Positions 7,861 through 58,933 of a stretch of 64,000 nt of DNA are shown here, piece after piece. The notes below the pieces were generated by a model, which saw only the letters and a program-made list of their open reading frames with translations, did no database searches and was not told the origin of the DNA. Every line of letters starts with the position of its first letter. Position 1 is the first letter of the stretch. Source of the stretch: an uncultured Gammaproteobacteria bacterium. Lineage in GTDB: Bacteria > Patescibacteriota > Microgenomatia > CAYSOG01. The position numbers were made by a program, and so were the translations under genes. Where the stretch lies: the NCBI GenBank assembly GCA_964432675.1, contig CAYSOG010000002.1:6975-70974 (forward strand), given 5' to 3'.

Positions 7861-8862
7861 ATGGCAAATACACCTAATGACACCAGCATTTTAAATTCCG
7901 GGACCGCAAAAACGGAAGTCACAGCCGCTTCCCAAGCGGTTACTGATCCATGGCACGGTATAGTAAGTCCGGCCCGCCACCGGCCAAAATTATCACAAGA
8001 AGACCTCATTGAGCTTCGAAAGCGCCAAGGTATCGGCTTTTTTGATGAATTTAATGAAGCAGCTGCTCAACCACGTCCAGAAATACCCAGTCCTGATTAT
8101 GCCGATATTATCGATATGCGCGCCGATATCGTGAGCACCTTAAGTGAAGGTTTTTCTGAAGCCCGAGAAGTTATTACCGTTGCCGTCACCGATGTGGTCA
8201 AAAAAGGAGAGCAGGTATTATATAAAGCAAAAACTATTGTTGCTGCTGAAGCGACCGATGTCTTTAACCAAATTATTGGCAAAACTGACCACGCCGAAAC
8301 AAATGCCGCATCCAAAGCAAATCCACATGCTGATAGAAAACCGGCCGAAGTTTATACACCAAAACCAAGTGAAATTTTTGATGATTTAAAGCTTGAACAC
8401 ATCAAGCAGCTTGAACAATTATTTGGCTTAGACCAACTAAAAGGGCACGAGGTGCCAAATAATCACGCGCCCGAGCAAAAGAGCCAAAAGCCACAGGAGG
8501 ATGAAGTTAAAAAACAACAACTTATCGCCGAGCAAAAGCAAAAGATAGCGTATTTCGCAAGACAACGCCAAACAAGCCCCATGGACGAAGCCATGGCCCA
8601 AACTGGTGTTGGTGCCGATGAGGCAAAGCAATTGCTCAATGTTAGTACCAGTATAGACATTAATAAACTCAAAAATGCTAAGTCGGCCCACGATTTAGTC
8701 CAGGCTCGCAGTGCCCAGCTGCAAGCTGCAAAACAAGATTCAGGTGAACTTGGTAGCACTGGTAATGCTTCCGGACGGCTGATTGACAAGTCAGCCGGCA
8801 AAGCCCTGTTAAATGACCTCCAAAACGGCGGCGAAACCCAGATGAAAAATTCTGTCGGCTAA
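7861..8862 (+). CDS. hypothetical charged, low-complexity protein
   Basis: 333-aa ORF rich in K, E, Q and A. No recognisable domain. Confidence 0.5.
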   Translation: MANTPNDTSILNSGTAKTEVTAASQAVTDPWHGIVSPARHRPKLSQEDLIELRKRQGIGFFDEFNEAAAQPRPEIPSPDYADIIDMRADIVSTLSEGFSEAREVITVAVTDVVKKGEQVLYKAKTIVAAEATDVFNQIIGKTDHAETNAASKANPHADRKPAEVYTPKPSEIFDDLKLEHIKQLEQLFGLDQLKGHEVPNNHAPEQKSQKPQEDEVKKQQLIAEQKQKIAYFARQRQTSPMDEAMAQTGVGADEAKQLLNVSTSIDINKLKNAKSAHDLVQARSAQLQAAKQDSGELGSTGNASGRLIDKSAGKALLNDLQNGGETQMKNSVG

Positions 8863-14125: not shown

Positions 14126-15280
14126 ATGGCAAATTTTGAACGCATAACCCCACAAACTACAACGCTTTTTAGCAATGAAGACAAAGAAATTATGAACGAT
14201 TTTCGTCGACTTGACGCAGTCGAATCGGGCGAAGAACCACTGCCACTTTTACAGGAACCATTTGTGCTACAGTTTGCGAGGCTGTTAGCAACGTCGCATG
14301 ATCCGAGTGAACTTGTTCAATTCTGTGAACAAGACTATCCAGCCTACTATCAACAAGCAGGAGAATTTTTGTCACAAGCATCCCAAACTGCAAAAGATCG
14401 AGTGCATAAAGATCCACAATCGCATCAATCCCAAAACTTGTTACTTGAACGTTATAGCAGAATGCTCACCAGGCTTGACCGTGAACTTGCGGTGCCCCAA
14501 AATCTCCACCTGTTGGTTACATTTCGTAATGACCATATAGCAACTGATAAAAGTGAAGAAAAAGAAGCAAAAGTAGTGGAAGAATTTTATCAAGATTTAT
14601 CTTCAATATTCAGACCAAGCCAAAAAAATATACTTATAATAGAAGAACGATTTGAATGGCCAAAGTATCGCAAGAAATTTTACCAGGCAAGAGAGCAAAC
14701 TGGTTCATACGTTGCTGCTGGGATCGCACTAAGCCAGCTGTTAGATAGTCAATACTATTTCAATCCTTTTCTAGCGCCGCTTGACCGGTTTGACCAATCA
14801 TACGAAGTCAAAGTCGAATTTATGCAATCACCGGGGGAACAAGCGGCTGGTGACCAAATGCTGCGCATAGCCCAAGCTAAAACATTGCATGCCTTTAAGC
14901 AGGCCTGCATTAACGCAGAAAAGCTAAATGAACGTCGAGTTTCAACGATTGCAAATATGATTAACAAAGAAGTACAAGAAACCGAAGGCGAAACAAATAT
15001 CGTTTATTTACTGCCGACAAAGGACATGGGTATCGAACGCGTACTACATCCACGTCTTAAACCAATAACAACATATCTAAACCGGAAATCTATGTTCGAA
15101 GAAAACTCAGTGTATTACATCTCGGATATTGCTTATAATAACCCGGACAACACTGATGACATAGCGTGGCAAAAAGCTTATGATACCTTTCTTAAAATTC
15201 GCACAGGGCTGACAGCATATTTTCGTCAATTTGCTGAAATGTACGATGAGCTTGATATGTTTTATCGATCTGGCTTCTAA
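14126..15280 (+). CDS. hypothetical protein (384 aa)
   Basis: Long ORF. I did not recognise any family. Confidence 0.55.
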   Translation: MANFERITPQTTTLFSNEDKEIMNDFRRLDAVESGEEPLPLLQEPFVLQFARLLATSHDPSELVQFCEQDYPAYYQQAGEFLSQASQTAKDRVHKDPQSHQSQNLLLERYSRMLTRLDRELAVPQNLHLLVTFRNDHIATDKSEEKEAKVVEEFYQDLSSIFRPSQKNILIIEERFEWPKYRKKFYQAREQTGSYVAAGIALSQLLDSQYYFNPFLAPLDRFDQSYEVKVEFMQSPGEQAAGDQMLRIAQAKTLHAFKQACINAEKLNERRVSTIANMINKEVQETEGETNIVYLLPTKDMGIERVLHPRLKPITTYLNRKSMFEENSVYYISDIAYNNPDNTDDIAWQKAYDTFLKIRTGLTAYFRQFAEMYDELDMFYRSGF

Positions 15281-27063: not shown

Positions 27064-27095
27064 AGCCCCCTCCATTTTGCAGGGGGCTTTTTTAT
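27064..27095. terminator. bidirectional Rho-independent terminator
   Basis: AGCCCCCT ... AGGGGGCT stem with T-runs on both strands, between two convergent genes. Confidence 0.7.
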
Positions 27096-27175: not shown

Positions 27176-29884
27176 TTACTTGGACAAAAAATAGTCATTC
27201 CCGAATGCCTTTGTAAAGGCTTGGGTATTGGCTTTAGTGTTGTTAACTGTCCAGTCGATGTCACCGTCTTTGGTATTGAACCAGACGACTGCTTTAATTG
27301 CCGGGTGTTTTTCGATATAACCGGCTAATAACTGCATCCATTGTCCCTTCGATTGCCCCGGCACGTTAGAATCGGCGCTGGCTGTTTCGGTAATTATGAT
27401 AGGCTTATTGAATTTTTCAATATCAGAAACCGTTGGCGAAAACATTGCTGTAGGCGTTCGAAACCCATTGTTTTTGTAATAACCGTTCCAGTTAAACGAG
27501 CTGACACCAACCCAGTCAACATAGTTATCTCCTGGATAAAATGCATCGATATTTGACGAATAAGGAACCTTTTGTTCGTCATACTTTTCATTTGGTGACC
27601 ACACCCAAGTAACATTAGTTGCACCAACTGATTGGAATATGTCATGGACATGTTGCCATGCCGCGATATATTCCTGCGGCGTATTATACGTGCTACCCCA
27701 TGGATACCAATTACCATTCATTTCATGGGCAAACCGTATCATAACCGGCTTTCTGTACGCTTTAACATCTTTTGCATACTGGGTGATGTAGGCATCATAT
27801 AAGCCTTCCGAAATTAGTTTCATGCGATATTGCTGTTGGTTGGCATCGTTGTCGCTTCTGTTATACCCATTAACCGGTTGCCAAGGTTCCCAAGTAACCA
27901 TTGGTATCGAGTTTTGGCTTGCAATATAATTTGACCACTGTTGGTTGAAGCGGTTATCTTTAACGCCCCAAGCTTGGTAATAGCCAACAATCGCGAAATT
28001 CTTGCCGAATTGGTTCTGTAAGCCCACAAGGGCATCACTGTCATTATGGTTATAAAGGGAAACGCCTACGAGTGAGCCTTCATTTGGCTCCTGGACTTTG
28101 CCCGCTAACGGCGTATTGCTGGTGGTAAATGTCGCTACTGTAAACGATGGTGCAAAGAAAGCTTCAGCCAACTTCGCCCGATCTGTGTAGGCAAAAGCCA
28201 AACTAACCATGACGACACAGGCAAAGCTAAAGCTCACCCCATACCGTATCAGCCGCCAGGCTATTTGATATGACGTAAGGTAAGCATAGACGCCATCCCA
28301 ATAAATACTGAGCGATACCGCGAGCAAAGTAAGAACGTTAAAAAGTGCCCAAAAACGTAGTTGGACCGCGCCGTGGTTTTGGATACAACTGACGATAAGC
28401 GCATATGCTGTTAAGGAGATAAGGATAAGATGTGGCAAAAACGTTTTAACGGGTACCCGTTGTTGTTTTGCGGTACTGCCTTTTTGGGTTACCATATAGC
28501 GCAATTTGATACCGGTAATGAAATTAAAAAAGGCAATGGCATAGATAATGTTCGCGCCAAGGTTTAAGAACATACCAAGCGGCCCTAATAACGGTTCGTT
28601 TTCCGGGTCAATTTGGAAGCGATGGGTATAAAGCTGAATAACATTGGCTAGCAAGAATGGTGGAAAAGAATAGGCAAGCCATTGTTGCAATTGCATATTC
28701 GCATCACGAAGGCCAAACAATAGATAAAGTACTGTCAAGAATATGCCAAACAGAACGGCAAGGCCAGTAAAGTAATAGAGTTGCGCCAAGCAGTAGTTAA
28801 TTTTTTGTTTCAATGGTAAATGCCAAACAATTCTCGGTGTATGTTTGAATAATATTTCAAACAACCCATAGCTCCAGCGCATTTGCTGATTAAAATAGTC
28901 TACCCAATTTAAAGGTCCTTCGCCCTTGGCAATAATTTCTGGCACAAAAACACCCTTATAACCGTATTTGTAAAATAACATGCCGGTTAAATGGTCTTCT
29001 ACAATAGTCGGCGCATAGCCGCCAATTTTTTTCATCGCAGAAGCCCGATAAATATGGCTTGTCCCTATTAAAAATGGCATGTCACAACCGTAAAAGCCTT
29101 GCTGCATTGGCCCATGAAAGAAAAATGACTGCTCACCGGCACCCCGGGCAATCCAGTTTTCAGTGTTCTTATAAAACTGTGGTGTGCCGACAAAACCAAC
29201 TTTTTCATCACGAAAGTAACCAAGTGTCCGTTCAAAAAATTCAGGTTCCGGCACATGGTCCATGTCTATCTGGGCGACAATATCATAACTATCTTCGTGC
29301 TTATCACGCCAGGCATTGTGGTTACCCGCTTTTGTCTTGGTACGGTATATGCCAGATTCCTGGTTATACTTTGCAATACCTTTTCTTGAAAAATGTTTAA
29401 CTCCTAAGCGTTCGCATAAGGCCTTCACTTCTTTATCATTGCCTTCATCCAATACCCACGTATCGTGTGGATAGCGAACCTTAAGCATGGCACATAGGGT
29501 GTCTGAAAGCATGTCCAAAGGTTCCTTACCGGGTACATAGCAGGTTAAAAAGGCAACACGAAGCCCTTTTTGAGGCCGTAAGTACTTTGGTTTTGCCATA
29601 AACCACAAGGCAAACCAACTAGCAACGCGCAAAAGCATGCCCAAAAAGACAACTGAAGAAACGATTATGAAAAGAATAAGGTCAAATGCGTGGGATGATA
29701 AAATACTGGTTCCTTGAAAGTTTTGGGGAATATGCTCTGGCTTAAACCACCATAATGCATAACGGATGACAAAAAAGAAACCTAAACTGATTAAGCCGGC
29801 ATAAACTGCCCGCTGTTTTTTAGTAAAGACAGCGACCTTTTCAACAGACACAGTATTGGTGGGTTGACGTTTCTTAAATAGCAT
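27176..29884 (-). CDS. Membrane-embedded family-2 glycosyltransferase (processive, cellulose-synthase-like) fused to a C-terminal extracytoplasmic GH26-like (clan GH-A) glycoside hydrolase domain
   Basis: Two N-terminal TM helices, a GT2 core with DxD-type motifs and QQMRW (QxxRW), a further block of TM helices, then a hydrolase domain with RFAHEMNGNWYPWG, WVWSPNE and IIITETA. Confidence 0.75.
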   Translation of the reverse strand: MLFKKRQPTNTVSVEKVAVFTKKQRAVYAGLISLGFFFVIRYALWWFKPEHIPQNFQGTSILSSHAFDLILFIIVSSVVFLGMLLRVASWFALWFMAKPKYLRPQKGLRVAFLTCYVPGKEPLDMLSDTLCAMLKVRYPHDTWVLDEGNDKEVKALCERLGVKHFSRKGIAKYNQESGIYRTKTKAGNHNAWRDKHEDSYDIVAQIDMDHVPEPEFFERTLGYFRDEKVGFVGTPQFYKNTENWIARGAGEQSFFFHGPMQQGFYGCDMPFLIGTSHIYRASAMKKIGGYAPTIVEDHLTGMLFYKYGYKGVFVPEIIAKGEGPLNWVDYFNQQMRWSYGLFEILFKHTPRIVWHLPLKQKINYCLAQLYYFTGLAVLFGIFLTVLYLLFGLRDANMQLQQWLAYSFPPFLLANVIQLYTHRFQIDPENEPLLGPLGMFLNLGANIIYAIAFFNFITGIKLRYMVTQKGSTAKQQRVPVKTFLPHLILISLTAYALIVSCIQNHGAVQLRFWALFNVLTLLAVSLSIYWDGVYAYLTSYQIAWRLIRYGVSFSFACVVMVSLAFAYTDRAKLAEAFFAPSFTVATFTTSNTPLAGKVQEPNEGSLVGVSLYNHNDSDALVGLQNQFGKNFAIVGYYQAWGVKDNRFNQQWSNYIASQNSIPMVTWEPWQPVNGYNRSDNDANQQQYRMKLISEGLYDAYITQYAKDVKAYRKPVMIRFAHEMNGNWYPWGSTYNTPQEYIAAWQHVHDIFQSVGATNVTWVWSPNEKYDEQKVPYSSNIDAFYPGDNYVDWVGVSSFNWNGYYKNNGFRTPTAMFSPTVSDIEKFNKPIIITETASADSNVPGQSKGQWMQLLAGYIEKHPAIKAVVWFNTKDGDIDWTVNNTKANTQAFTKAFGNDYFLSK

Positions 29885-29952
29885 TACATTACTATCAACT
29901 ATAGGTCGAAATTATACACTATTATAGGATAAAAGTCAACAGAATGAAGAGC

Positions 29953-31119
29953 TTAAAAGGAAGGCCGGTATATCGGAGAAGAAATCGAAGAAATAAACAA
30001 ATTAAGTGTACTTGGTGATATGTCTATAAGCCAATTTACGTTTTCTTGTTGTGACCGATCTTCGTTGTAAAAGACAACTGCTTGGATATGGGGGAAATTT
30101 GCGGGCACTTGCACTTGGAGCATATCTTTATACCAAGTACTTTTATCGCCACCGCGATCAGTCGTATTAACTTCGGCTAGCATAATTGGTTTAGTAGGGG
30201 AGAGGGCAATGAGTTCATTGTACGGCTCTCGGAAAACAGTTGCAAAGCTTTGCCATTGGCTCCATGACTGTGTGGTACCCCAGTTATATCCATCCACACC
30301 AAGCCAGTCAACGTTGGCATCCCCAGGATACAATGTTTTATAAGGAATACTTTGGTCATTCCCTTTATTGGGTGCAAAAACCCACAACACTTTGGTGGCA
30401 TTCTCAGAAGCAACGATCGAATGAAAACGTTGCCAAGCTGCTATAAAATCTTCTGGGGTATCATGAGTTTGCAGTGGACTCCAGGCAGTTGTTGGTAAGT
30501 TCATTTCCCAGGCAAACCGTAAAAAGATTGGCTTGTTAAATGTTGCTAAATTATGACCCACGGTATGTAAGAATGCGTCACAATTGCCATTTGCAATCGC
30601 TTTATAAAGGCTCAAGCCATTACTCTGGCACTGCGAAAAAAAGTATGGATTAATACTTAGCATCGGCCGCCAGCCATATTGGGTAATGGTGTTAAGCTCA
30701 CCGACAATAGCATCGGAGGCCAGTGCGTCCCATCCCCGATAGTAATGTGCAATAGCAACATGTTTCCCGATTTTTTGTTCGACCAATTGTAATTGATCAG
30801 GGTGTAGTGTTTTTGCATTGTCGTCCCAAAAACCCTGCGTCCACATGCCAAGATAAACCGCCCTGGTAGTCTCTACTGGCGGCTTAAGAGCTACCAGCTT
30901 ATTCGCTGGCGCAATACTAGCAACAGATTGCGTAGGGCTCGGTGTAGTCGCTATGGCTTCGCCTCTAACCGCTGGTGAAAATGTCGGAAAGTTACCGGCG
31001 CTCATAGGAGTTGTCGCACGATACTTACCGTACCATAGCACTGAGGTTACCCCAACGAGCAAAACAAAAGCTGTAAACAAAATAAGATGCTTGGGAAGCA
31101 TCATCCGTGAAAATCTCAT
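29953..31119 (-). CDS. secreted or membrane-anchored GH26-like glycoside hydrolase, paralog of the C-terminal domain of the upstream fusion
   Basis: Signal-anchor, then RFAWEMNLPTTAWSP, LWVFAPN and IMLAEVNTTD motifs parallel to the fusion protein's hydrolase domain. Confidence 0.7.
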   Translation of the reverse strand: MRFSRMMLPKHLILFTAFVLLVGVTSVLWYGKYRATTPMSAGNFPTFSPAVRGEAIATTPSPTQSVASIAPANKLVALKPPVETTRAVYLGMWTQGFWDDNAKTLHPDQLQLVEQKIGKHVAIAHYYRGWDALASDAIVGELNTITQYGWRPMLSINPYFFSQCQSNGLSLYKAIANGNCDAFLHTVGHNLATFNKPIFLRFAWEMNLPTTAWSPLQTHDTPEDFIAAWQRFHSIVASENATKVLWVFAPNKGNDQSIPYKTLYPGDANVDWLGVDGYNWGTTQSWSQWQSFATVFREPYNELIALSPTKPIMLAEVNTTDRGGDKSTWYKDMLQVQVPANFPHIQAVVFYNEDRSQQENVNWLIDISPSTLNLFISSISSPIYRPSF

Positions 31120-31227
31120 CTCCTTTTATGACCTTCATAATACATTTGTAAACCGAATGCAACCAAAAAATTTTGCGGTTGCATTTTTATTCCAGATTGC
31201 AGTAGAGTAGACAAAAGGAGAATTTTT

Positions 31228-31686
31228 ATGACGAAACAAATTGCCATTATCAGTATTTTGTGCCTATCTCTTACCGCTTGTAGCTTAGGTATTCGCAGCC
31301 GACTCAAAAGCCTAACCGGCACGGCTGCTTCACCAACGGCTAGCGTATCACCAACAACATCTGCAATGGCTTCAGCAAGCAGCGCTGCGATGCAGGCCAC
31401 AACAGCACCACAGTCGAAAACTACCATAACATATACGTCTAGTGGTTTCTCGCCGGCAACACTCACCATCAAGGCAGGTGACAGTGTTACATTCGTTAAT
31501 CATGCAACAGGTGACGTCCAAGTGAATTCCGACCCACATCCGACACATACACTGTATCCAATGCTTAATATCGGTGTTATTACAGCCGGATTATCGTCTG
31601 ATCCAGTAGCCTTCACAAAGGCGGGCACGTACACCTATCATAACCACCTAAACCCAGCCCAAAAGGGGACAATTGTCGTCCAATAG
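31228..31686 (+). CDS. lipoprotein with a cupredoxin-like beta-sandwich domain
   Basis: Lipobox LSLTAC, an Ala/Ser/Thr linker, then a C-terminal domain (TLTIKAGDSVTFVNHATGDVQVNSDPHPTH...GTYTYHNHLNPAQKGTIVV). There is no Cys ligand, so copper binding is doubtful. Confidence 0.45.
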   Translation: MTKQIAIISILCLSLTACSLGIRSRLKSLTGTAASPTASVSPTTSAMASASSAAMQATTAPQSKTTITYTSSGFSPATLTIKAGDSVTFVNHATGDVQVNSDPHPTHTLYPMLNIGVITAGLSSDPVAFTKAGTYTYHNHLNPAQKGTIVVQ

Positions 31687-38528: not shown

Positions 38529-39179
38529 ATGCCCACCAAAAATGGATTTGGTACCCTTCTTATTGTTGGCGTTGGTGCAGTGGTTGTAGTAATCCTTTTA
38601 GGGATAATTTTAGCGCTGAACAAAACCTCGAATAAACCCAAACCGTCTGCATCACCGATTGAAACAGCAAAATCAACGAAAGAGGCAGAATTGATGCCAA
38701 GTACGACATTTAAGCCTGTGGCCACCAAGGCTGCCACTAATTCCGCAAGTAATATTTGGCGGACCTATTCTGGTAATGGTATCCAATTCCAATACCCGTC
38801 CAATTGGCATCTTACGACAAAGCCAATAGCAGGTGGCGGCAATGCCATCATCGTTTCGATCGCTAGCTCTTCGGCAAATGTCGCCCAAAGCTTATCGGTT
38901 GAAATCTACAATCCTGGTGGCACGACGCCACAAACTGCCGATGCAGCTTTTAGTGCATTAGGGTACACTAAAAGCAATATTATTATCAACAATGCCCCGG
39001 CAAGTAAATATCAGGGATATATCAATACGAACACGTTACCACTCCAAGAAACTGCTGTTGTGTTTATGGATAATAACAAGACCTACCAGATTACCTTTGA
39101 TTATTCTTCGCAGCAGTTTGATAGCCAAATCCAGCAAAACTTTACCAAATTTTTAGCCTCATTGCGAATATTACAATAG
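38529..39179 (+). CDS. membrane-anchored hypothetical protein (family A of a paralog array)
   Basis: N-terminal TM (GFGTLLIVGVGAVVVVILLGIILAL), a linker, then a C-terminal domain beginning W(R/K)TY..NGI...YP..W. Confidence 0.55.
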   Translation: MPTKNGFGTLLIVGVGAVVVVILLGIILALNKTSNKPKPSASPIETAKSTKEAELMPSTTFKPVATKAATNSASNIWRTYSGNGIQFQYPSNWHLTTKPIAGGGNAIIVSIASSSANVAQSLSVEIYNPGGTTPQTADAAFSALGYTKSNIIINNAPASKYQGYINTNTLPLQETAVVFMDNNKTYQITFDYSSQQFDSQIQQNFTKFLASLRILQ

Positions 39180-40196
39180 CCCTACTCCCGAAATAATTCC
39201 AAACACACTGTCAGTTGGCCGACTTTGGTCAATCGTACCGCCCCATTCAACTTCAGTAAAACCGATCCTTTGGGGCATTGTCATCGGTAAGATGAGCGGA
39301 TCAACTGAGATAGGCTCTTTAAGCGGCTTAAAGTAGGCTAAAAACTCAATTCTCGTATCCGGTGCGGGAGAAATAGTCACGTGGTCAGTTCGATCTTTTT
39401 CGATGGGGTCAATGACAGAAAATAAGATATACGGGCTATTTAACGCCTGCAATTTCGGCACCCAAAAGTCCAAAAATTCCCGTTGTTCATCTGGTCTCAG
39501 GCCGAATTGTCCAGTTAGCAACGTTAAGATCGGTGCAAGATCTGCAGCCTTGATAACGATGCCTGTAGTGGGCTTGATGGATGCATGTACTGATGATTCA
39601 TAATACAGTTCGCGATACGTCCGTGCCTTAAAGCTCAGTGTACCATCTGGACTGACCTCTACCCCAAACCAGCCATTACCATACAGCGGGTCGCTTTCGA
39701 CGATCGTACCGGGAATCGTTAGGGTGACATCTACTGCCAACGGCTTTGTGGGATATAAGTAGATCACCGGTTTTAACATACAATAATCTCCGTCACCTAA
39801 ATTAGAACAAACTTTTTGGCCGAATTGCTCGCACTTAAAGAGATTTTTTTGCCACGGCAGTAATCCTTGTGGATCCTTTACGCCAGCGCAATAGTGTCCT
39901 TGACAAGTGACAGTATAGTCAGGGCACTGACAATTCGGTGAAACCGGTATAGCGCTATCAGCGCTGCAAGTGTCGTTTGGTATGTAGGGTGGGGGTGAAG
40001 CGCTTGGCGTTGGTGAGGCAATTTGAAAGGTATCAAGCTGTAATCGTCTATTTGCCAGAGGTGTACCTTGCGGAGCACCGACGAGGGTTGCATGTGGCGA
40101 AGTTGTGGGTATCGCTGATGTACTGGTGAGTGAACAACCAACAAGGATGAACAGTGGTAAAAAATAAACGAGCTTTTTCATAGCTATATTAATCAT
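39171..40196 (-). CDS. lipoprotein with a Cys-rich region and a conserved C-terminal domain (family B, copy 1)
   Basis: Lipobox LVGCSLT, then a Cys-rich segment (CSADSAIPVSPNCQCPDYTVTCQGHYCAG), then the conserved block KPVIYLYP...PGTIVESDPLYGNGWFGV...YRELYYES...FTEVEWGGTID. The start is probably MKKLVYF at 40181. Confidence 0.6.
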   Translation of the reverse strand: MINIAMKKLVYFLPLFILVGCSLTSTSAIPTTSPHATLVGAPQGTPLANRRLQLDTFQIASPTPSASPPPYIPNDTCSADSAIPVSPNCQCPDYTVTCQGHYCAGVKDPQGLLPWQKNLFKCEQFGQKVCSNLGDGDYCMLKPVIYLYPTKPLAVDVTLTIPGTIVESDPLYGNGWFGVEVSPDGTLSFKARTYRELYYESSVHASIKPTTGIVIKAADLAPILTLLTGQFGLRPDEQREFLDFWVPKLQALNSPYILFSVIDPIEKDRTDHVTISPAPDTRIEFLAYFKPLKEPISVDPLILPMTMPQRIGFTEVEWGGTIDQSRPTDSVFGIISGVGLL

Positions 40197-40935: not shown

Positions 40936-41907
40936 TTACCGAACCAACCATTCAAGAAGCGTATTTTCCATGTTACTGCCATTATCGATTGTGCCGCCCC
41001 ATTCGACTGCAGTAAATCCTGACCGGGTTGGGATACTCGAGGGAAGTGATAATGGCGTGATTTGGGTAGGTGCTGCAAGTGGTTTAAAGTAGGCTAAAAA
41101 TTCAATCCACGTATCCGGTTTCGGTGAAATAGACACATGGTCGATGCGATCCTTTTCAATTGGGTCAATGATTGAAAACAGGATGTATGGACTATTTACG
41201 GCTTCCAGTTTTGGCACCCAATAATCCAAGAATTCCTGTTGTTCCGATGGCATTAGTCCAAGTTGCGAGGTAATAAGCGTGAGCATTGGTTTTAGCTGCT
41301 TAGTCTCGAGAATAATACCGCTAGTTGGTTTTCGAACTGTATCTACACCTGATTCATAATATAACTCTTTATACGCTTTTGACCGATACTCAAGCGAGCC
41401 ATTTGGATGCGCTAATACACCAAACCAGCCGTTCCCGTAGAATGGATCGCTTACCACGATTTTACCTGGTACGGTTACATTAACGTCCACTAGAGTATCT
41501 TTGACTGGATATAAATAGATAACTGGCTTAGCAACACAATAATGGCCATCGGCCCGGTTTTCACAAACTATGCCGTATTGCTGGCATGCCCCGCTTGTGC
41601 AAACCCCACCCGTGCAATATAAACCCTGGTCACCGCCTGAGCAATAGCAACTGCCATCGGTCGGCGTACCGGTGTCTGAGGGACATTGCCCCTGGGGCAC
41701 ACCAGGTGACGATGGCTGGGGTGTAGCCGAAGGGGTAGTAATTGCTATTTTAAATGTGTCCATTTCAAGTCTTTTGTTGGATTCACCGCTAGGCACGCCA
41801 ACAATTGTGCGATTTGGCGTAGCAGAGGGTTGTGGGGTATTGGCAGAACCGGTAATAGAACAGCTTGTCAGTAATAGGCCAAAAAACAACCAGCAAAATC
41901 GTTTCAT
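40936..41907 (-). CDS. lipoprotein with Cys-rich region and conserved C-terminal domain (family B, copy 2)
   Basis: Trimmed from track ORF 40936..42264 to the ATG at 41907 (MKRFCWLFFGLLLTSCSITG) with AGAAGG RBS. This removes a 283-nt overlap with the next gene. Conserved block KPVIYLYP...DPFYGNGWFGV...FTAVEWGGTID. Confidence 0.6.
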   Translation of the reverse strand: MKRFCWLFFGLLLTSCSITGSANTPQPSATPNRTIVGVPSGESNKRLEMDTFKIAITTPSATPQPSSPGVPQGQCPSDTGTPTDGSCYCSGGDQGLYCTGGVCTSGACQQYGIVCENRADGHYCVAKPVIYLYPVKDTLVDVNVTVPGKIVVSDPFYGNGWFGVLAHPNGSLEYRSKAYKELYYESGVDTVRKPTSGIILETKQLKPMLTLITSQLGLMPSEQQEFLDYWVPKLEAVNSPYILFSIIDPIEKDRIDHVSISPKPDTWIEFLAYFKPLAAPTQITPLSLPSSIPTRSGFTAVEWGGTIDNGSNMENTLLEWLVR

Positions 41908-41981
41908 ATGGTACCTTCTATATTGCCTTGGAATGCCCATTGTAGTCAATTGTCTATTCTGTGCAAAAGAACGATATGGCC

Positions 41982-42962
41982 CTATTGTAGGAAAGGAAGT
42001 GGGAAAGGTGATGGTTGCAATGGCGTGGTATCTATGGTACCGCCCCATTCGACTGCGGTAAAACCGTTTCGTACAGGAACTGATGACAACTGAAGCGGCG
42101 TTATTTGGACTGGTGTTACAAGTGGTTTGAAGTAGGCTAAAAACTGGATTTTCGTATCCGGTGCTGGCGTTATAGCAACATGGTCGATCTTTTCCTTCTC
42201 GACAGGGTCGATTAAAGAGAAAAGGACGTACGGCGAGTGAAGCGCTTGTAACTTCGGTAGCCAAAATGCTAGGAATTCCTGTTGTTCAGGCTCGGTTAAT
42301 CCTAACTGGCTGGTTAAAATAGATAATATCTGCGGTAATTGTTCTGTCTTGATAACTATGCCGTTTGTCGGCTTTTGGAACTGTGTAATAGCGGTTTCGT
42401 AGTATAATTCTTTGTATTGCTTCCCTTGATACGAGAGTGTTCCACTTGGATAAGCCAAAACGTTTTCCCAACCGATACCGTAGTCCGGATCGCTTACGAC
42501 GATCCTTCCTGGCGTTTGCACCTCTACAGAAACCAACATTGGTTTGCTCGGATAAAGATAGACCACAGGTTTTCCAAGGCAAAAGGTTCCACTACCGCTA
42601 CCGGTTAGGTCAGGCATCGTACACCACTGGCCGGGAGCGCCAGAACAGTCTTGTGGTGGCAATCCGTTACTTGGTGTAACCACTTTTTCGCATTGGTGGT
42701 CTTTGCAAGTTACAAGCCATACTTGACATTCACACCCAGGGCCAGCCGGTTTTCCAGCATCGTGGTTACAGTTGTCACCAGGAGTTGGGCTGGGCAAACG
42801 AAACGTATCAAGCTGTAAACGCCGGTTAGCTTGCGCATTATCATTTGGTAAACCAACCGTTGTTTGGGCAGGTGTCGCGTGGGGTAGGGGACTGCTACCA
42901 TCGCCGGTAAGCGAACAGCCGGTTAATAAAAAAACTGCTGAGAGAAGATATATTTTTTGCAT
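41982..42962 (-). CDS. lipoprotein with Cys-rich region and conserved C-terminal domain (family B, copy 3)
   Basis: MQKIYLLSAVFLLTGCSLTG lipobox. Cys-rich segment (CNHDAGKPAGPGCECQVWLVTCKDHQCEK). Conserved block KPVVYLYP...DPDYGIGWENV...FTAVEWGGTID. Confidence 0.6.
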   Translation of the reverse strand: MQKIYLLSAVFLLTGCSLTGDGSSPLPHATPAQTTVGLPNDNAQANRRLQLDTFRLPSPTPGDNCNHDAGKPAGPGCECQVWLVTCKDHQCEKVVTPSNGLPPQDCSGAPGQWCTMPDLTGSGSGTFCLGKPVVYLYPSKPMLVSVEVQTPGRIVVSDPDYGIGWENVLAYPSGTLSYQGKQYKELYYETAITQFQKPTNGIVIKTEQLPQILSILTSQLGLTEPEQQEFLAFWLPKLQALHSPYVLFSLIDPVEKEKIDHVAITPAPDTKIQFLAYFKPLVTPVQITPLQLSSVPVRNGFTAVEWGGTIDTTPLQPSPFPLPFLQ

Positions 42963-47456: not shown

Positions 47457-48275
47457 TTATCGACCCGGTACAGGAGAAGTACCCGGTAGGGTAGAAGGCA
47501 ACACAATTTTAGGACTACCTGTTGGTAAAGGCGATGTCGTCGTGGATGGAGAGGCAGATTGTGTTGCGACAACAAGGCTACCACCATTTTCTATATCAGT
47601 ATACACCGGCATTTGTGAAAGCTTTGTAATAAGCTCGTTACTGCTTTGTGAAATTTGGGGTAGGGGATTAGCATAGCTTGTTCCTAAATCCTTAGCGCTA
47701 GGTAGTTGCATGGTATAAACAGCCAGTGTAACTGCCGAGCTCAATGAATTGCCAGACAAGCCAGTGCTGCTGTTTATCTTAACTACCCCCATAACCCGTC
47801 GGATTTGTGATAGTTTTGCCAGAAAAGCCTGTAAATTCTTAATGTCACCACCAAGGGTTAACTGCACATCAATTTCCGATTGTTGCGCCGAATCTGAAGC
47901 CAGTTTACCTGGTTTTAACTGCATACCGACAACTTGTAAATTATTTTCCTGGCTTAGCCGAAGTAAACCGGCAATTAAGCCTGGCACGTTTTTATCTTCT
48001 GGTAAAGCCCGACGGGTTTCCGTTAAGTCGTTTGTAAGTTTATCATCGTTTAAGTTTGCAAGGGTATCGCGTTTTAGTTTGAGGCTTTCAAGTTCTTTTG
48101 ACTCTTGTACAATAGCCGCCCGGTTTGCCTGCAGCTGGCTGACAACCGCTCTCACCGGGAACAATGTTGCAACAACAATGATAAGTGCCGTAATAATAGG
48201 CAGTAAAATTGCCTGCGATATCGTTCTGCCAGCAACATGGATTTGGGACTGCGAAAATAACGATTGAAATTTCAT
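47457..48275 (-). CDS. pilO: type IV pilus assembly protein PilO-like
   Basis: TM, a coiled coil and a PilO-like periplasmic domain (LLRLSQENNLQVVGMQLKPG), then a Ser/Thr/Pro tail. It is the last gene of the pilM-pilN-pilO block. Confidence 0.65.
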   Translation of the reverse strand: MKFQSLFSQSQIHVAGRTISQAILLPIITALIIVVATLFPVRAVVSQLQANRAAIVQESKELESLKLKRDTLANLNDDKLTNDLTETRRALPEDKNVPGLIAGLLRLSQENNLQVVGMQLKPGKLASDSAQQSEIDVQLTLGGDIKNLQAFLAKLSQIRRVMGVVKINSSTGLSGNSLSSAVTLAVYTMQLPSAKDLGTSYANPLPQISQSSNELITKLSQMPVYTDIENGGSLVVATQSASPSTTTSPLPTGSPKIVLPSTLPGTSPVPGR

Positions 48276-48293
48276 ATATTATCTCTACGTTTC

Positions 48294-48842
48294 TTACTTA
48301 CTGTTATACGTAAAATGCATGGTGAAAGCGTAACTACCACCGTCGTTTCGGTTTAATGATTGCAAGAGAATACCACTAAATACCTGACGGCCAAATTCTT
48401 TGGCAGTTATGTCAGACAAAAATCGATCAAGGGCTGCAATATTAGCAGCTGTACCAGAAATCAGAACATTATTTTGCCCGGAAAGGCCTAGTTCGGTGTA
48501 GGTGACATCGCTGCTTTGCAGGTCAATAAGCCGGCTTACAATTTGGTCATATGGCGGTTTTGCCAATTCAATATTCTGCAACGCGCCAACTTTGCTTGCA
48601 ATTGCCCTAAGATAATATTCACGCTTTGATAGTTGGTCAATATCGTTTTCAACTGGCGTTTTCTCAACACGGATATCATGCAGGGACTTTGCACTTAAGG
48701 TAAACATGACAAAAATAATCAGCAAAATCGCCAGAAAAATTGCTAAAACGAACCCGCTTATAAGGGAAATGGTACGATAACGGGACCTGCCCCCTCCGGC
48801 AACCTCAGCCTCTGGTATTAAGTTAACTTCTTGTAAGGCCAT
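48294..48842 (-). CDS. pilN: type IV pilus assembly protein PilN-like
   Basis: A short cytoplasmic N-terminus, a single TM, then a periplasmic domain. It sits directly downstream of pilM. Confidence 0.65.
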   Translation of the reverse strand: MALQEVNLIPEAEVAGGGRSRYRTISLISGFVLAIFLAILLIIFVMFTLSAKSLHDIRVEKTPVENDIDQLSKREYYLRAIASKVGALQNIELAKPPYDQIVSRLIDLQSSDVTYTELGLSGQNNVLISGTAANIAALDRFLSDITAKEFGRQVFSGILLQSLNRNDGGSYAFTMHFTYNSK

Positions 48843-48932
48843 AAAACAGTTTCCTAACAGATTATTACGCTAACAAATACAAACGATTATTCATCTAGCA
48901 AAAAGTTCATCAAACTTACCTGTCACTTTTAA

Positions 48933-49985
48933 TTAGACTTCTTTCAACGCCAAGCCTGCGGCAACTGCAAAATCGGGTGCAAATTGGTTTAACTTTTGGG
49001 CGAGCTCAGGGTCTGAACCAATAAATACCCAAGGATCACCAATTTGGACTTCAACTCCTAGGCTTTGGGCCAAATAAACAATTAAGCCCGGAAGCTTTGC
49101 TGACCCGCCGCAGAGCATAACTCGTTTTATTGTGTCGGATGGGTTCTTTCGCTGGTAAAACGTTAATGCGCGGTTAATTTCCGAAACAACAACATCAAAT
49201 ATAGGCCGAATTGCAGCCAATATTTTGCCCCCTAATTCGCTTTCTAACAGTCCATAGGTTTTCTTATACTCTTCAGCTTGGTTTAGGTCGAAATTAAGTT
49301 CAGCTGCCAATGCCCGAGACAACGCCTGGCCTCCAGTGGGGATAGATCTGGTGAACGCGATAATGCCCCCTGTTAGAATTGCTAAATCAGTTGTTGAGGC
49401 GCCAATTGAAATAATTAATGTTGTCGGCGCTGCAGCGCTTGACCCAACAATCGACCGGGATACAGCTAATATCTCCGTTTCCATACCAACAGGCTTTAAG
49501 CCTGCCATTTTGGTAATTTTGAGGTATTTTTCAATGAGGTCTTTTGGCACGGCAATTAACAAAATTTCCATTTTACCGCTGTTTAGGGTCGAGCCTTCAC
49601 GCAGCACTTGGTAAACCAGGGAAACTTCATTAATGGGAATAGGGACGTATTCTTCCGCGAGGTAGCGGATTGACTGGCTTAAATCTTTCTTTTCAATCTT
49701 TGGCGCTTCAACAAGGCGCGTAAAGATAAGCGATTCAGGAAAAGCAGTTACAACGTTTGTTGTGGTAACTTTACTTTCTTTTACTAAGCGCTTAACCGCA
49801 TCAGCTAATACTTGCAGGTCAACCGAGGAATCGGAAATGACACCACCTTTTGGCGTTGGCTCGATCCCAAAGGTTACAAGTTCATACGGTTTTTTTGATT
49901 TGTTCACTTCAACTAACCGAAGTGAGTGGGTTCCGATATCTAAGCCAAAGGTTTGGGCAGCCATAATAGTAAAACTAAAAAGCAA
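48933..49985 (-). CDS. pilM: type IV pilus assembly ATPase-like protein PilM (actin-like fold)
   Basis: FGLDIGTHSLRLVEV... matches the FtsA/PilM fold. Confidence 0.8.
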   Translation of the reverse strand: MLFSFTIMAAQTFGLDIGTHSLRLVEVNKSKKPYELVTFGIEPTPKGGVISDSSVDLQVLADAVKRLVKESKVTTTNVVTAFPESLIFTRLVEAPKIEKKDLSQSIRYLAEEYVPIPINEVSLVYQVLREGSTLNSGKMEILLIAVPKDLIEKYLKITKMAGLKPVGMETEILAVSRSIVGSSAAAPTTLIISIGASTTDLAILTGGIIAFTRSIPTGGQALSRALAAELNFDLNQAEEYKKTYGLLESELGGKILAAIRPIFDVVVSEINRALTFYQRKNPSDTIKRVMLCGGSAKLPGLIVYLAQSLGVEVQIGDPWVFIGSDPELAQKLNQFAPDFAVAAGLALKEV

Positions 49986-50078
49986 CGATTAAAATGAAAA
50001 GATGAGACATAATTATGAGTAAAGTTCTGTGTTTTACATTATCAAATTCGCTTATTCCATTTACATTTTGCTATCTAC

Positions 50079-50972
50079 TCAATTCTTCGTAAGTGGTGTT
50101 GTCGCACTACCGTTAAAAAGTACGTAGTCGAATATCGACGGTAAGCCACCAATTGACCGTTCGACCTGGACAACCCGCTTGGTGTCTCCAGAAACCCCTT
50201 CTGAACGAATTGTATACGACTGGACTGGAATTTGCTGGCCGTTTGGCGTCACCATTCGTATTGTCGCGCTATTATACAGCGGTCGGATGCGAATAAGCTT
50301 GCCGCTAGCAGGCAGCGAAATTGTCTGCTTGCTGACAAATTGGTTGAGGCTGTTATCTGTCCCTGCTGTTATAAAACCATTTGAAGCCGCTAAACTCGGA
50401 CAACTGTTTGCATTATAATTCCCGCCGGCTGGTGAGGACCGCGAAACGCCATAATTCGTACCATCGAAGGTAACAATCGATATTTCAAGAGAGGCCGGCA
50501 TCGCCGCAGGCGGCGTACAAGAAGAACCGGCTGGGTTTTCTTGCGTATTGTTCTTTAAGCTCCAGTACACATCTAACGACGTTGCAACCGTACACCCACT
50601 GCAGTGTGATTGGTCGATATCAAGCTGGATCACATCATCTTGGGCAACTGGCTTTGCAGGTTGGTAAATGCCAGTCGTTGAACCCGACTTTGATATAGTA
50701 ATATTCGACTGCGCGCCACCGACAGAAATAGCATTTAAGGAAACACTATTTTGGCCAGAGGGAATTAATGAGGGAATGTCTTGACGCAACGTGCTCTCTA
50801 TACCAGCTTCAGCCGCTTCAAAAGCCCGGCTCGAACGCTCTGTTGTTGACGATTCCTTTACATTTGTTACCGTTCGTGCAATAACCGAAAGGCCTACGGT
50901 AAGTGTTACGACTAAAATTAGCAATAATACGACGAGTGCCTGCCCTTTTTGCAGGTTCTGGTGAGTTAGCAT
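50079..50972 (-). CDS. PilX-like minor pilin / pilus assembly protein
   Basis: PilX_N-like N-terminus QKGQALVVLLLILVVTLTVGLSVIA. The start is set at the internal Met; the track ORF extends to 51032. Confidence 0.5.
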   Translation of the reverse strand: MLTHQNLQKGQALVVLLLILVVTLTVGLSVIARTVTNVKESSTTERSSRAFEAAEAGIESTLRQDIPSLIPSGQNSVSLNAISVGGAQSNITISKSGSTTGIYQPAKPVAQDDVIQLDIDQSHCSGCTVATSLDVYWSLKNNTQENPAGSSCTPPAAMPASLEISIVTFDGTNYGVSRSSPAGGNYNANSCPSLAASNGFITAGTDNSLNQFVSKQTISLPASGKLIRIRPLYNSATIRMVTPNGQQIPVQSYTIRSEGVSGDTKRVVQVERSIGGLPSIFDYVLFNGSATTPLTKN

Positions 50973-51110
50973 CCGCAATGTTGCAATACGTGTAAATATC
51001 GACTTGGGCATAAGAATAAGCCACACAACCATTTCTTAATGTGTGTACATAAAGCTTAGCAAACGCGAAACCGCAAAGTCAACCGGGAAGGATTGCTCAA
51101 AAAGGCTGAT

Positions 51111-51731
51111 TTAATAGGAACGCAGGGAAAAACTTGATAAAAAGGGTAACGATCCGGTATTTTCTTGCCGAGTACTTGCGGCAGTCTGGCTTTTGCTCTG
51201 CTGCAGTGTAAACGACACAATGACAACCGTGGTATTTGTTCCAGCGTTTTGGACGACCTGGAAATATGGTGCTGGCGACACCGCAAGGTCAATTGCGTTT
51301 AAGGCCGCGTTATTGTTAGTTATAGATGTTGCAGTAGCAGGATTGAAGGTAGGGGATTGCAACGCTGCCAATGACTGGTTTGAGTCAACACCAATAAAAC
51401 CATTGGCAGTGTTTGAGGTAACCAATGATATACGCGTATAAAGTGGCTGCGATGTATCAAGCACCTTATTTTGGACTATGATATGGTCAAGGTTTGTACC
51501 AGCGGCTGGAGGATCAACGATAGCCGAAGCATTGCTAACGGTTCGTGATATCCGTTCAAGAGCGGTGTTGCCATTCTCTTGTAGTTGGGTCGAAATAGTG
51601 GCTTTATTAGCGCTCCGTAACACACTAATAAAGACGTTCGTTCCAATAACAACCATAATGCCAGTAATGGCAATCACGACGAGCAGCTCAATTAAAGTGA
51701 ACCCATTTAGTGACCTTTGCCATTTGATCAT
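51111..51731 (-). CDS. type IV pilin-like protein (prepilin N-terminus)
   Basis: MIKWQRSLNG/FTLIELLVVIAITGIMVV. Start set at the Met so the gene abuts the upstream pilin. Confidence 0.7.
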   Translation of the reverse strand: MIKWQRSLNGFTLIELLVVIAITGIMVVIGTNVFISVLRSANKATISTQLQENGNTALERISRTVSNASAIVDPPAAGTNLDHIIVQNKVLDTSQPLYTRISLVTSNTANGFIGVDSNQSLAALQSPTFNPATATSITNNNAALNAIDLAVSPAPYFQVVQNAGTNTTVVIVSFTLQQSKSQTAASTRQENTGSLPFLSSFSLRSY

Positions 51732-51732
51732 A

Positions 51733-52326
51733 TTAGTTTGTCGCCTCAAAATTACTGTAATAGCTTGTGAGCGTTGAACTATGACTGCCGCTCGCGTCCT
51801 GCCAAAAAACATAAACCACAACGGTGGCACATTTTGAGCCGGCAGACGCACCGGCAGCGCTAGGACAAGTTGAAGTTGCCGAATTATCAATCATTATTTT
51901 TCGAATAAATCCATTAGCCAAATTTTCGTTTGGGTCAACTTGGGTTGTAATATTAGTACAAGGTGCAGTATCACCAGAAGCGTTCGGCAGAAGCCAGTCA
52001 GCAGTTGGATTACTCGTAAATAATGACTGATTAATATAGTAACAGGTGCCACCACTTGTTCCTTTGCTGCTAAAAAAGGTAGAAGGGTTAATGTCGCGGT
52101 AGGCCCTCACTGATTCCATCGCTTGCCTGGCATACGCATTGGCAATTGTTTGGTTCTTCGAAAATGTTGCGTTCCGAACGGAATTAATGGATGCCACCGA
52201 TAGTGCTGTTAAAACTATCATCGCAATTGTTAACGCCGCCAACACTTCCAAAAGCCCTTGACCTTTTTGCGACTTAATTATGGAACAGGTATTAGTTTGC
52301 AATTTTTTTAGTAATAGTTTATGCAT
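51733..52326 (-). CDS. type IV minor pilin-like protein
   Basis: KG/QGLLEVLAALTIAMIVL has a Gly cleavage site and Glu at +5. Confidence 0.6.
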   Translation of the reverse strand: MHKLLLKKLQTNTCSIIKSQKGQGLLEVLAALTIAMIVLTALSVASINSVRNATFSKNQTIANAYARQAMESVRAYRDINPSTFFSSKGTSGGTCYYINQSLFTSNPTADWLLPNASGDTAPCTNITTQVDPNENLANGFIRKIMIDNSATSTCPSAAGASAGSKCATVVVYVFWQDASGSHSSTLTSYYSNFEATN

Positions 52327-52347
52327 AATCGTATAATCTTGTATCCA

Positions 52348-53058
52348 CTACTGGTTCGTTAAGACGGCACCGTTCGTTTGGACCGTAATTGAGTACGCAG
52401 GCGTACTACCTTGGGTTGCTGTGACGGTAAGCGATTGTGTAATGGCAATCTTATTTGCACTGGTAAATTGGCGGTTATTATAAAACTCAGCAGTCTGGGT
52501 AACTGGCTTAAATAAAATATAGATTGGTGAAGCATATGCGCCGCCATCTACCGCCAGTGCCAATACAAGAGTAGTTGACGGAAACTGTAACGTCTTACCA
52601 TTACCAACATCAGAAGCGGCACCGACAACAGCGCCACAGCTGCCGCTTAATTGGACAACAGGAGCTGCCCCTGGGGTTATTTTCACATACCAGCCATCAA
52701 AGGCATATTGCGATGGTGAACCAACGGGCGGCGAGGGGTTTTGCGGACATGCCTGTGCGCCATTTCCTGAAATTGCACTATTTTGAGCAACGTGTAATGA
52801 CTGGGCTAAAAGTGTTCCGGATTGCACAAGCTGCTGACTGCGGTTGTAGTTATTGTAGGCTGGAATAGAAAAACCAAGCAGTAAAGAAATAATGGTTATG
52901 ACGACTAATAGTTCAATCAGCGTAAAGCCCAGAGTAGGGGAAAGTAGAAAGCCCTTCGACTCAAGCGCCGGACGAGCACGGGAAGCGGGAAGAACGGAAA
53001 ATACCTTCTCTTTGTGTCCTATGTTTTGTGATTTGCGATTTGTAATTTGCGTTCTCAT
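52348..53058 (-). CDS. type IV pilin-like protein
   Basis: LG/FTLIELLVVITIISLLLG. The leader is unusually long, so the true start is probably an unannotated internal GTG or TTG. Confidence 0.65.
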   Translation of the reverse strand: MRTQITNRKSQNIGHKEKVFSVLPASRARPALESKGFLLSPTLGFTLIELLVVITIISLLLGFSIPAYNNYNRSQQLVQSGTLLAQSLHVAQNSAISGNGAQACPQNPSPPVGSPSQYAFDGWYVKITPGAAPVVQLSGSCGAVVGAASDVGNGKTLQFPSTTLVLALAVDGGAYASPIYILFKPVTQTAEFYNNRQFTSANKIAITQSLTVTATQGSTPAYSITVQTNGAVLTNQ

Positions 53059-53100
53059 TACGTTTTTATAGTAGCCTTCTTAATGAAGTGAAGTCAATTT

Positions 53101-53628: not shown

Positions 53629-53691
53629 TGATGTAAAACTTTATATTTATGTGGACTTGTATTAAGGCAATATAAATCACAAACTTCGCAC

Positions 53692-54812: not shown

Positions 54813-54819
54813 GCTATTT

Positions 54820-58919: not shown

Positions 58920-58933
58920 GGCGGTTGCTTATT

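Follow-up and report, generated by a model that had tools for sequence, protein, structure and literature searches.

A predicted polysaccharide synthase fused to a GH26 hydrolase, and its neighbouring GH26 paralog, in a Microgenomates-type bacterium

Why would a polysaccharide synthase carry a glycoside hydrolase at its C-terminal end, and why would a second hydrolase of the same family be encoded right next to it? This question is raised by a 64-kb stretch of DNA on contig CAYSOG010000002.1 (the whole of which we call the window), whose host is an uncultivated, ultra-small, single-membrane bacterium of the Microgenomates type within the candidate phyla radiation (CPR). On its minus strand, a single unbroken open reading frame (ORF) at 27176..29884 (902 aa plus stop) joins a family GT2 glycosyltransferase to a glycoside hydrolase of family GH26, while a stand-alone GH26 gene (29953..31119; 388 aa plus stop) lies upstream on the same strand, with 68 bp between the two ORFs. 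We refer to the fused hydrolase as F-type and to the separate one as S-type; positions are those of the window, on its minus strand unless stated otherwise. Our answer is that the two genes probably, though by no means surely, form a self-contained module for a synthase-dependent, extracellular or cell-wall beta-linked polysaccharide, which would be cut or remodelled outside the cell by both GH26 units.

To our knowledge, every well-studied synthase-dependent exopolysaccharide system has a cognate glycanase or lyase, and the roles debated for the glycanases include chain release, length control, clearing of stalled products and remodelling. A glycanase welded to its synthase, with both catalytic glutamates retained, is a natural one-to-one partnership, and the case for functional coupling is unusually clear here because fused and split forms cross phyla and a motif-shifted paralog is kept adjacent. 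Furthermore, the module hints at a surface polysaccharide not yet described from CPR bacteria, about whose envelopes next to nothing is known. Our literature searches turned up no account of a fusion of GT2 to GH26, of a pairing of S- and F-type enzymes or of such a system in CPR bacteria; the fusion is thus apparently new, although fusions of a glycoside hydrolase to a synthase are as such already known (GH17-GT2 in NdvB, GT2-GH6 in tunicate CesA). The only paper we found on a GH26 enzyme in an exopolysaccharide cluster, that on WpsE of Actinoplanes, deals with a Wzx/Wzy cluster rather than with a synthase-dependent one, and according to a 2026 paper no Wzx/Wzy-pathway cluster with a GH26 has been characterised (PMC13390465).

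Architecture of the fusion protein and its paralog

The 902-aa protein had been read as a GT2-GH26 fusion in an initial annotation of the window; position and strand proved exact, the motifs quoted in support (QxxRW, RFAHEMN and ITETA) are all present, and Pfam, matches among PDB sequences and an AlphaFold2 (AF2) model agree on the assignment, which cannot be put down to chance. In the N-terminal part, Pfam GT2 models cover residues 117-390 (best Glyco_trans_2_3, E 9.5e-20), and residues 31-415 match BcsA in a search against PDB sequences (E 2e-27). The catalytic set (D,D,D,QxxRW in outline) is complete, with D146, D207xD209, E296-D297 (equivalent to TED) and Q333xxRW337 in place. These D, DxD, ED and QQMRW motifs are invariant across 25-80 homologs and are aligned by HMMER with DDG, DxD, TED and QRGRW of BcsA. 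A gating-loop motif of the FxVTxK type, YMVTQK, follows at residues 463-468, and a constant distance of 130 aa separates it from QxxRW in almost every one of 120 relatives that we checked. When 25 fusion proteins are aligned, D146, D207xD209, E296-D297, Q333, Q334, R336, W337, Y463, T466 and K468 are all invariant; the roles of the TED motif and of the FxVTxK gating loop have been described elsewhere (PMC6821405).

The AF2 model of the whole protein, with a mean predicted local distance difference test score (pLDDT) of 92.8 and a predicted TM-score (pTM) of 0.69, has helices that follow the layout of BcsA, and Foldseek aligns it to BcsA 4p00 over 581 columns (E 2e-25). Two transmembrane (TM) helices (residues 22-46, 29747..29821; residues 61-94, 29603..29704), placed by the model and by topology prediction, precede the predicted cytoplasmic GT-A catalytic domain (residues 97-326, 28907..29596), which holds D146, D207xD209 and E296-D297. 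Next come an interface helix (residues 327-355, 28820..28906) bearing QQMRW (residues 333-337, nt 28874-28888) and a translocation module (residues 358-538, 28271..28813) with four TM helices (358-390, 399-423, 479-502 and 507-538), a further interface helix (435-457) and the K/R-rich gating loop with YMVTQK. The model thus predicts that the N-terminal 540 residues are a BcsA-like processive GT2 with a six-helix membrane channel, and by analogy this enzyme would both polymerise processively and translocate the glycan.

Orthology to BcsA itself was considered and rejected: the protein scores far below the cut-off of TIGR03030 (132.8 against 699.1 bits), likewise against NF008558 (84.1 against 992 bits), is only about 20% identical to BcsA, and gives no Pfam match to PilZ, its C-terminus consisting of a seventh TM helix (TM7) and the GH26 domain. 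TM7 (residues 540-567, 28184..28267) leads into a linker (residues 568-603, 28076..28183) whose length varies among homologs and whose pLDDT falls below 50 at residues 581-589. The helix is missing in GT2-only relatives of about 550 aa, which stop some 90-100 residues past FxVTxK, so that only two helices fit after the gating loop.

Since the fusion has one extra helix, an odd number, TM7 is predicted to carry the C-terminus across the membrane, making the GH26 domain extracytoplasmic, as had been proposed; the cytoplasmic side is marked by K/R residues in a positive-inside pattern, with seven in the N-terminus, itself predicted to be cytoplasmic, and six in the gating loop. This topology is supported by split F-type enzymes that carry anchors of their own, namely one at locus L026 with a K-rich N-terminus and a single TM helix, and the downstream GH26 of a Dactylosporangium strain (L086) with its own hydrophobic leader. 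It is also supported by a relative of 1017 aa (P0028) in which GT2 and GH26 are followed by a C-terminal LysM, which suggests that the hydrolase end lies at the peptidoglycan layer, and by the S-type protein, whose barrel has two invariant cysteines and is predicted to be joined by a disordered linker to an N-terminal helix.

The F-type (beta/alpha)8 domain itself spans residues 604-902 (27179..28075). Its assignment to a hydrolase family, as annotated, is well founded: PF02156 (Glyco_hydro_26) matches residues 699-818 with 66.3 bits against a cut-off of 20.2 (E 3.8e-18), residues 601-895 match the lichenase CtLic26A among PDB sequences (E 2e-34), and the modelled barrel superposes on CtLic26A with a TM-score of 0.91, a root-mean-square deviation of 2.4 Å and 32% identity (Foldseek). 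Alignment to CtLic26A, whose own catalytic glutamates were identified from its HE and AE motifs, points to E721 in RFAHEMN (residues 717-723; nt 27722-27724) as acid/base and to E833 in ITETA (residues 831-835; nt 27386-27388) as nucleophile. Both are invariant in 25 fusion homologs, and the F-type shares H-E-M-N, WEPW and the nucleophile with CtLic26A. The fused barrel is therefore, as far as the model goes, a complete GH26.

The stand-alone gene encodes a second GH26, as the initial annotation had held. Its product passes the same Pfam cut-off (26.1 against 20.2 bits), has CtLic26A as best match among PDB sequences (E 1e-28) and gives an AF2 barrel that superposes on CtLic26A with a TM-score of 0.91 at 27% identity (Foldseek). 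The two GH26 units of the window are 28% identical to each other over about 290 residues (E 2e-32), which justifies calling them paralogs. The S-type protein begins with a predicted membrane-anchor helix (residues 9-34, 31018..31095), which a disordered linker rich in Pro, Thr, Ser and Ala (residues 35-87, about 50 in number) connects to the barrel (residues 88-388, 29956..30858). The acid/base is assigned to E205 in RFAWEMN (nt 30505-30507) and, by alignment, the nucleophile to E316 in MLAEVN (nt 30172-30174).

The S-type also shows a distinct set of motifs. The histidine before the acid/base glutamate, which from the aligned GH26 sequences we take to be a hallmark of the family, is present in the fused domain (H720-E721) and replaced by an invariant tryptophan in the paralog (W204-E205), and N157-P158-Y159 stands where the F-type has WEPW. 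Across 121 S-type sequences, glutamates E205 and E316, W-E-M-N and N-P-Y all reach a conservation of 98% or more, and C164 and C180 are invariant. Since the S-type keeps both glutamates yet has its own conserved W-E-M-N and N-P-Y in place of the F-type motifs, alignment identifies S and F as distinct, non-redundant orthologous groups.

CtLic26A, the GH26 lichenase domain of CelH from Clostridium thermocellum, is the closest solved structure to both units. Mannanase and xylanase structures superpose on the two models at TM-scores of 0.55-0.73 only, and a profile of the fusion family reaches E 1.5e-50 with CtLic26A and about 1e-15 with these other GH26 structures. In contrast to the window enzymes, CtLic26A is secreted, cellulosomal and catabolic, and is not associated with any synthase, and the S-type differs from it in having W-E for H-E and INPY for WEPW. 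Because identity is only about 30% (27-32%), its specificity for beta-1,3-1,4-glucan cannot be transferred by sequence comparison to the units described here.

Distribution of the fusion and its gene neighbourhood

A search for the architecture in other genomes showed that it recurs. The best 25 database relatives, from independent assemblies and 44-60% identical, all share the GT2 plus GH26 architecture, and the named members among them belong to Levybacteria and Roizmanbacteria (Microgenomates, Patescibacteria/CPR). More distant fusions occur in Chloroflexi (35-39% identity) and in a divergent group (33-35%), and the database entries for the relatives carry generic names only. The window sequence itself has no high-identity match in the database and so stems from a relative of these lineages that had not been sampled. 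On three contigs that we examined (from Roizmanbacteria, Levybacteria and elsewhere), the S-type gene is followed by the fusion gene while the flanking genes are unrelated; S-type and fusion are thus a conserved two-gene module in Microgenomates.

We scanned the synteny of this GT2 family using one genome per species, with 80 loci analysed. A GH26 lies within 10 kb of the GT2 at 33 of these species-level loci, an S-type ortholog within 300 bp at 21, and six encode in-frame fusions. Gene arrangements vary between S-type then fusion, three separate genes (GT2, then S, then F) and, in Actinobacteria, GT2 then F; one apparent split (L013) proved to be a masked run of N. In a neighbour-joining tree of the GT2 core, which has no support values and is indicative only, fusions are spread over at least four clades, with unfused forms interspersed between them. 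Two GH26 subtypes have been fused, a Lic26A-like one in the clade of the window and an ApsE-like one, nearer to the GH26 of Sinorhizobium, in Chloroflexi. That fusion and fission recur argues, on comparative grounds, that synthase and GH26 activities serve one process. The split loci of the GT2-then-F kind include those of the cultured Galbitalea soli NBRC 108727 and of the Dactylosporangium strain, which makes experiments feasible in cultured Actinobacteria.

Several related loci show further architectures. A Chloroflexi contig (JACPQF010000102; L005, 7235-18610) encodes two tandem GT2-GH26 fusions and, after them, three GH26 enzymes in genes of their own; these free enzymes are Lic26A-like, while the domains in the fusions are of the ApsE-like subtype. 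On a metagenome contig (L006) a GH26 adjoins its fusion. Among close relatives of the GT2, tandem GT2-GT2 fusions of about 1070-1210 aa, with a pair of synthase-type modules in a single chain, were also found (proteins P0026, P0038, P0039 and P0096; loci L018, L050, L056, L061 and L064, the last from the complete Saccharibacteria genome CP025011); some of these loci have an adjacent S-type GH26, and from their domain composition such proteins could make an alternating or two-sugar polymer. At seven loci (L051, L065, L066, L073, L075, L076 and L083), GT2 proteins of about 1080-1170 aa have a C-terminal extension of about 550 aa without Pfam match, and an S-type GH26 gene directly follows. At a Dehalococcoidia locus (L070, 11958-15959), one protein joins the GT2 to a large membrane domain of GT-C-like type, with weak matches to PMT_2, PTPS_related and YfhO, and several GH26 genes flank it. 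Finally, a GT2-only relative (L007, 7355-16232; 52% identity in the GT2 part) lies between two sortase genes and adjoins a 1601-aa protein with faint SpaA and SdrD_B matches, with no GH26 nearby.

Mechanism, polymer and competing explanations

How, then, could the two proteins work together? In the mechanism that we propose, the GT2 would polymerise a nucleotide-sugar and extrude a beta-linked chain through its own channel, while TM7 would cross the membrane and the linker of about 35 residues would hold the F-type GH26 on the outer face. There, the tethered enzyme, with the retaining chemistry of an endo-beta-glycanase, would cut the emerging chain, which could serve to release it, to set its length or to clear stalled products, the kind of role attributed to BcsZ, CcsZ and other glycanases that partner a synthase. 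The S-type, with its longer tether and its W-E motif, would act on the same polymer farther out. As for the polymer, a beta-glucan, possibly with mixed 1,3 and 1,4 linkages, appears most likely, a weak preference that we hold because both GH26 units are closest in sequence to the lichenase CtLic26A.

The initial annotation had likened the protein to BcsA plus BcsZ, a reasonable analogy which conserved synteny strengthens. Both BcsA/BcsZ, with a GH8 glycanase, and the clostridial CcsA/CcsZ, with a GH5, likewise combine a processive GT2 (D, DxD, TED, QxxRW and FxVTxK, with its own channel) with a cognate extracytoplasmic endoglycanase from the same locus. On the other hand, the window protein has two N-terminal TM helices where BcsA has four (PMC6821405), has neither a PilZ domain nor a BcsB partner (neither this locus nor the syntenic ones examined hold a BcsB-like gene), and differs from BcsZ and CcsZ in that its glycanase is a GH26, covalently fused and present in two copies. 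BcsZ is needed for the surface exposure of cellulose (bioRxiv 10.64898/2026.08.24.745826), and gene fusions are known in this system in the form of BcsZC and BcsAB (PMC7112194).

Closer precedents than BcsA plus BcsZ are the pairing of ApsS with a GH26 in Sinorhizobium, the GH17-GT2 protein NdvB and the GT2-GH6 protein of tunicates. The last shows the same pattern of a fused and a free paralog, tunicate CesA joining a GT2 to a GH6 domain with a free GH6-1 encoded elsewhere in the genome (PMC7464555). However, it is eukaryotic, its two GH6 paralogs are not adjacent while the GH26 paralogs of the window are neighbours, and its fused GH6 carries a substitution in the active site that may leave it inactive (PMC7464555), whereas the catalytic glutamates of the fused GH26 are invariant. 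Published descriptions further allow a comparison of the window GT2 with the bacterial mixed-linkage beta-glucan synthases BgsA of S. meliloti and RiGT2 of Romboutsia ilealis, both portrayed there as BcsA-like GT2 enzymes without PilZ, with few N-terminal TM helices and without a BcsB-type partner (PMC6821405, PMC10374906). This likeness is one of description only; their product would match a lichenase-type partner, and the passages searched in the two papers name no GH26 or other glycanase as a partner.

Several points weigh against the module as we have drawn it. First, the evidence on the polymer conflicts, with the GH26 units pointing to beta-1,3-1,4-glucan and the nearest studied relative of the GT2 to an arabinose-containing polymer. 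Second, about half of the GT2 relatives are without a GH26 inside 10 kb, so that the hydrolase is not obligatory for the GT2 family as a whole. Third, Pfam annotation of about 45 window ORFs revealed no sugar-nucleotide genes in the 64 kb. Fourth, a fixed docking of the GH26 above the channel exit cannot be claimed from the model, given a disordered linker of varying length and a pTM of only 0.69. Finally, it is by inference that we take the product of the synthase as the substrate of the GH26 units, and hydrolysis rather than transglycosylation as their reaction. The earlier suggestion of a polymer exported and trimmed by one polypeptide is supported overall, with the trimming a matter of interpretation and transglycosylation as its rival.

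Among the alternatives, a tentative case can be made for the same mechanism acting on a non-glucan polymer, such as an APS-like pentose polymer (arabinose or xylose), a mannan or a xylan, with the GH26 units as matching glycanases; we consider this possible, if doubtful. It starts from the GT2, which is clearly closer to ApsS of Sinorhizobium, its best plasmid match (30% identity over 520 aa, E 2e-66, 216 bits), than to BcsA (about 100 bits, about 20%), and ApsS, like the window GT2, has no PilZ detected by Pfam. The APS operon is switched on by CuxR, a regulator that responds to c-di-GMP, and is responsible for an exopolysaccharide that contains arabinose (PMC7902896, PMC12560781); it, too, has GT2 and GH26 together in one locus. 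It is the closest genetically studied GT2 plus GH26 pairing that we found, and because it pairs the two it offers a precedent for a joint role of this GT2 family and a GH26 in making a polysaccharide. Moreover, GH26 comprises mannanases, beta-1,3- and mixed-linkage xylanases and one characterised glucanase only (PMC10470212).

The APS cluster nevertheless differs from the window in several respects. Its order is a divergent AraC-type regulator, uxs1 (UDP-glucuronate decarboxylase, the UDP-xylose synthase), uxe (4-epimerase), GT2, DUF995, GH26 and DUF995; GT2 and GH26 are encoded separately, the GH26 gene (which we call apsE from gene order only) has no second copy, and the host is a diderm. 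The regulator, uxs1/uxe and the two DUF995 genes have no counterparts in the window, where phmmer searches with the Sinorhizobium proteins found no homologs of Uxs1, Uxe or DUF995; among 88 related loci a single epimerase turned up. The APS GH26 belongs to another subclade, scoring 39-55 bits against the window GH26 units, which score 104-128 bits with CtLic26A. The lack of uxs1/uxe homologs, these scores and the far better profile match to CtLic26A than to mannanases and xylanases speak against a non-glucan product.

Two further observations concern this reference system, which in Sinorhizobium is genetically tractable. We had considered the best Sinorhizobium plasmid hit as a possible BgsA and rejected this, since neighbour annotation and Pfam show it to lie in the APS operon. 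In addition, an APS-type cluster is found on a 181-kb conjugative plasmid of S. meliloti SM11, pSmeSM11b (L090, 8802-9416 and 10390-10899), with transposases flanking it and the GH26 gene bracketed by two DUF995 genes.

A second alternative, which we hold to be unlikely though worth weighing, is that the GH26 units are mainly transglycosylases and transfer the nascent chain to an acceptor, resulting in cyclisation, branching, new linkages or grafting onto the wall. A retaining mechanism in principle permits transglycosylation, and GH17 and GH26 both belong to clan GH-A. GH26 enzymes work by retaining double displacement with two glutamates (PMC10470212), and a precedent exists in the NdvB/'Orphan' protein of pseudomonads, which like the window protein unites in one polypeptide an extracytoplasmic retaining hydrolase domain, in its case a periplasmic GH17, with a TM segment and a BcsA-like cytoplasmic GT2, and for which cleavage and cyclisation of beta-1,3-glucan by the GH17 has been proposed (PMC10237404). 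Its GH17 is N-terminal, though, while the GH26 of the window is C-terminal after an added TM helix, and a second, free paralog is not described for NdvB. Two non-redundant GH26 types per synthase, the W-E and NPY motifs of the S-type suggesting altered handling of the -1 sugar or the acceptor, would also suit a transglycosylase, and the LysM of P0028 would fit action at the peptidoglycan layer. Against this, the F-type retains the canonical hydrolase motifs of CtLic26A, and none of the sequence features found here is diagnostic of transglycosylation. Nor are we aware of any characterised GH26 enzyme dedicated to transglycosylation.

If transfer did occur, a bolder and rather improbable extension would be that the module is a minimal machine for synthesis, export and grafting that builds a major envelope polysaccharide of Microgenomates and related single-membrane bacteria. 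The tethered GH26 and the free one of W-E type would share the work, one releasing the nascent beta-glycan and its partner transglycosylating it into the wall or into a network with mixed linkages or cross-links. If true, bacteria would thereby have an equivalent of the wall-remodelling enzymes XTH of plants and Gas/Crh of fungi, evolved repeatedly by fusion to the synthase.

The two remaining alternatives are poorly supported. It is very improbable that the GH26 units forage on plant or algal glycans from the environment, with the synthase an incidental partner that offers, for instance, a convenient membrane anchor. It is true that characterised GH26 enzymes are mostly catabolic (PMC10470212) and that the Lic26A-like clade is very large (11,137 clusters at E<=1e-3, of which 1,128 remain at E<=1e-30) and consists mainly of stand-alone members. 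However, GH26 ORFs are concentrated beside the GT2 (about 30 within 300 bp against six beyond 3 kb in the 80 loci), fusions recur in several phyla and with two GH26 subtypes, a homologous pairing exists within a dedicated exopolysaccharide operon (APS), and the module contains neither a sugar transporter nor downstream catabolic genes. Hardly credible, lastly, is a fusion arising as an artefact (an assembly chimera, a missed stop or a frameshift), for although split versions do occur in other lineages (L026, Actinobacteria), the ORF is unbroken, the top 25 relatives are in frame with the same architecture in independent assemblies, and the junction holds a well-predicted TM helix that GT2-only forms lack.

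Transcription signals and surroundings of the module

The preferred reading of a two-gene module also bears on how the genes are transcribed. The proposal that they belong to the same operon agrees with their shared strand, the 68-bp gap and a scan that reported no terminator-like site within that spacer. Less in keeping with it, the spacer holds the region's top-scoring sigma-70-like match, TTGACT-17-TATAAT (29911..29939; 11/12), a consensus match only, and because of its position the fusion gene may, besides being cotranscribed with the paralog, have a promoter of its own. About 90 bp past the fusion stop, a G+C-rich hairpin (GCCCCCT...AGGGGGC, 27065..27087) is T-rich on both flanks; reported on the plus strand by the scan and read on the minus strand from the sequence, it is likely to be a two-way terminator that closes the module.

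Downstream of the module lie a tRNA-Tyr gene and a gene for a class A penicillin-binding protein; upstream, a gene for a small cupredoxin-like protein (31228-31686, plus strand) is divergent from the S-type gene. A 118-aa ORF (31116-31472, minus strand) was considered as a third operon gene and rejected, as it has no Pfam match and is antisense to the cupredoxin gene; it is probably not a gene. According to the same Pfam annotation, the remainder of the window contains housekeeping genes, the penicillin-binding protein gene and a type IV pilus cluster, and no other polysaccharide genes were found elsewhere in the 64 kb. The pilus cluster (47457-61795, minus strand) encodes PilO, PilM, PilX-like and N-methyl-motif pilins, a prepilin peptidase, a T2SSF-family platform protein (PilC-like) and two T2SSE-family ATPases (PilB/PilT-like). 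Pfam gives no match for five ORFs with lengths of 326-442 aa (39171-40196, 40936-42264 and 41982-42962 on the minus strand; 14126-15280 and 7861-8862 on the plus strand). Near the start of the window, two adjacent plus-strand genes of about 235 aa (1612-2325 and 2340-3041), each with an N-terminal double zinc ribbon, may be paralogs.

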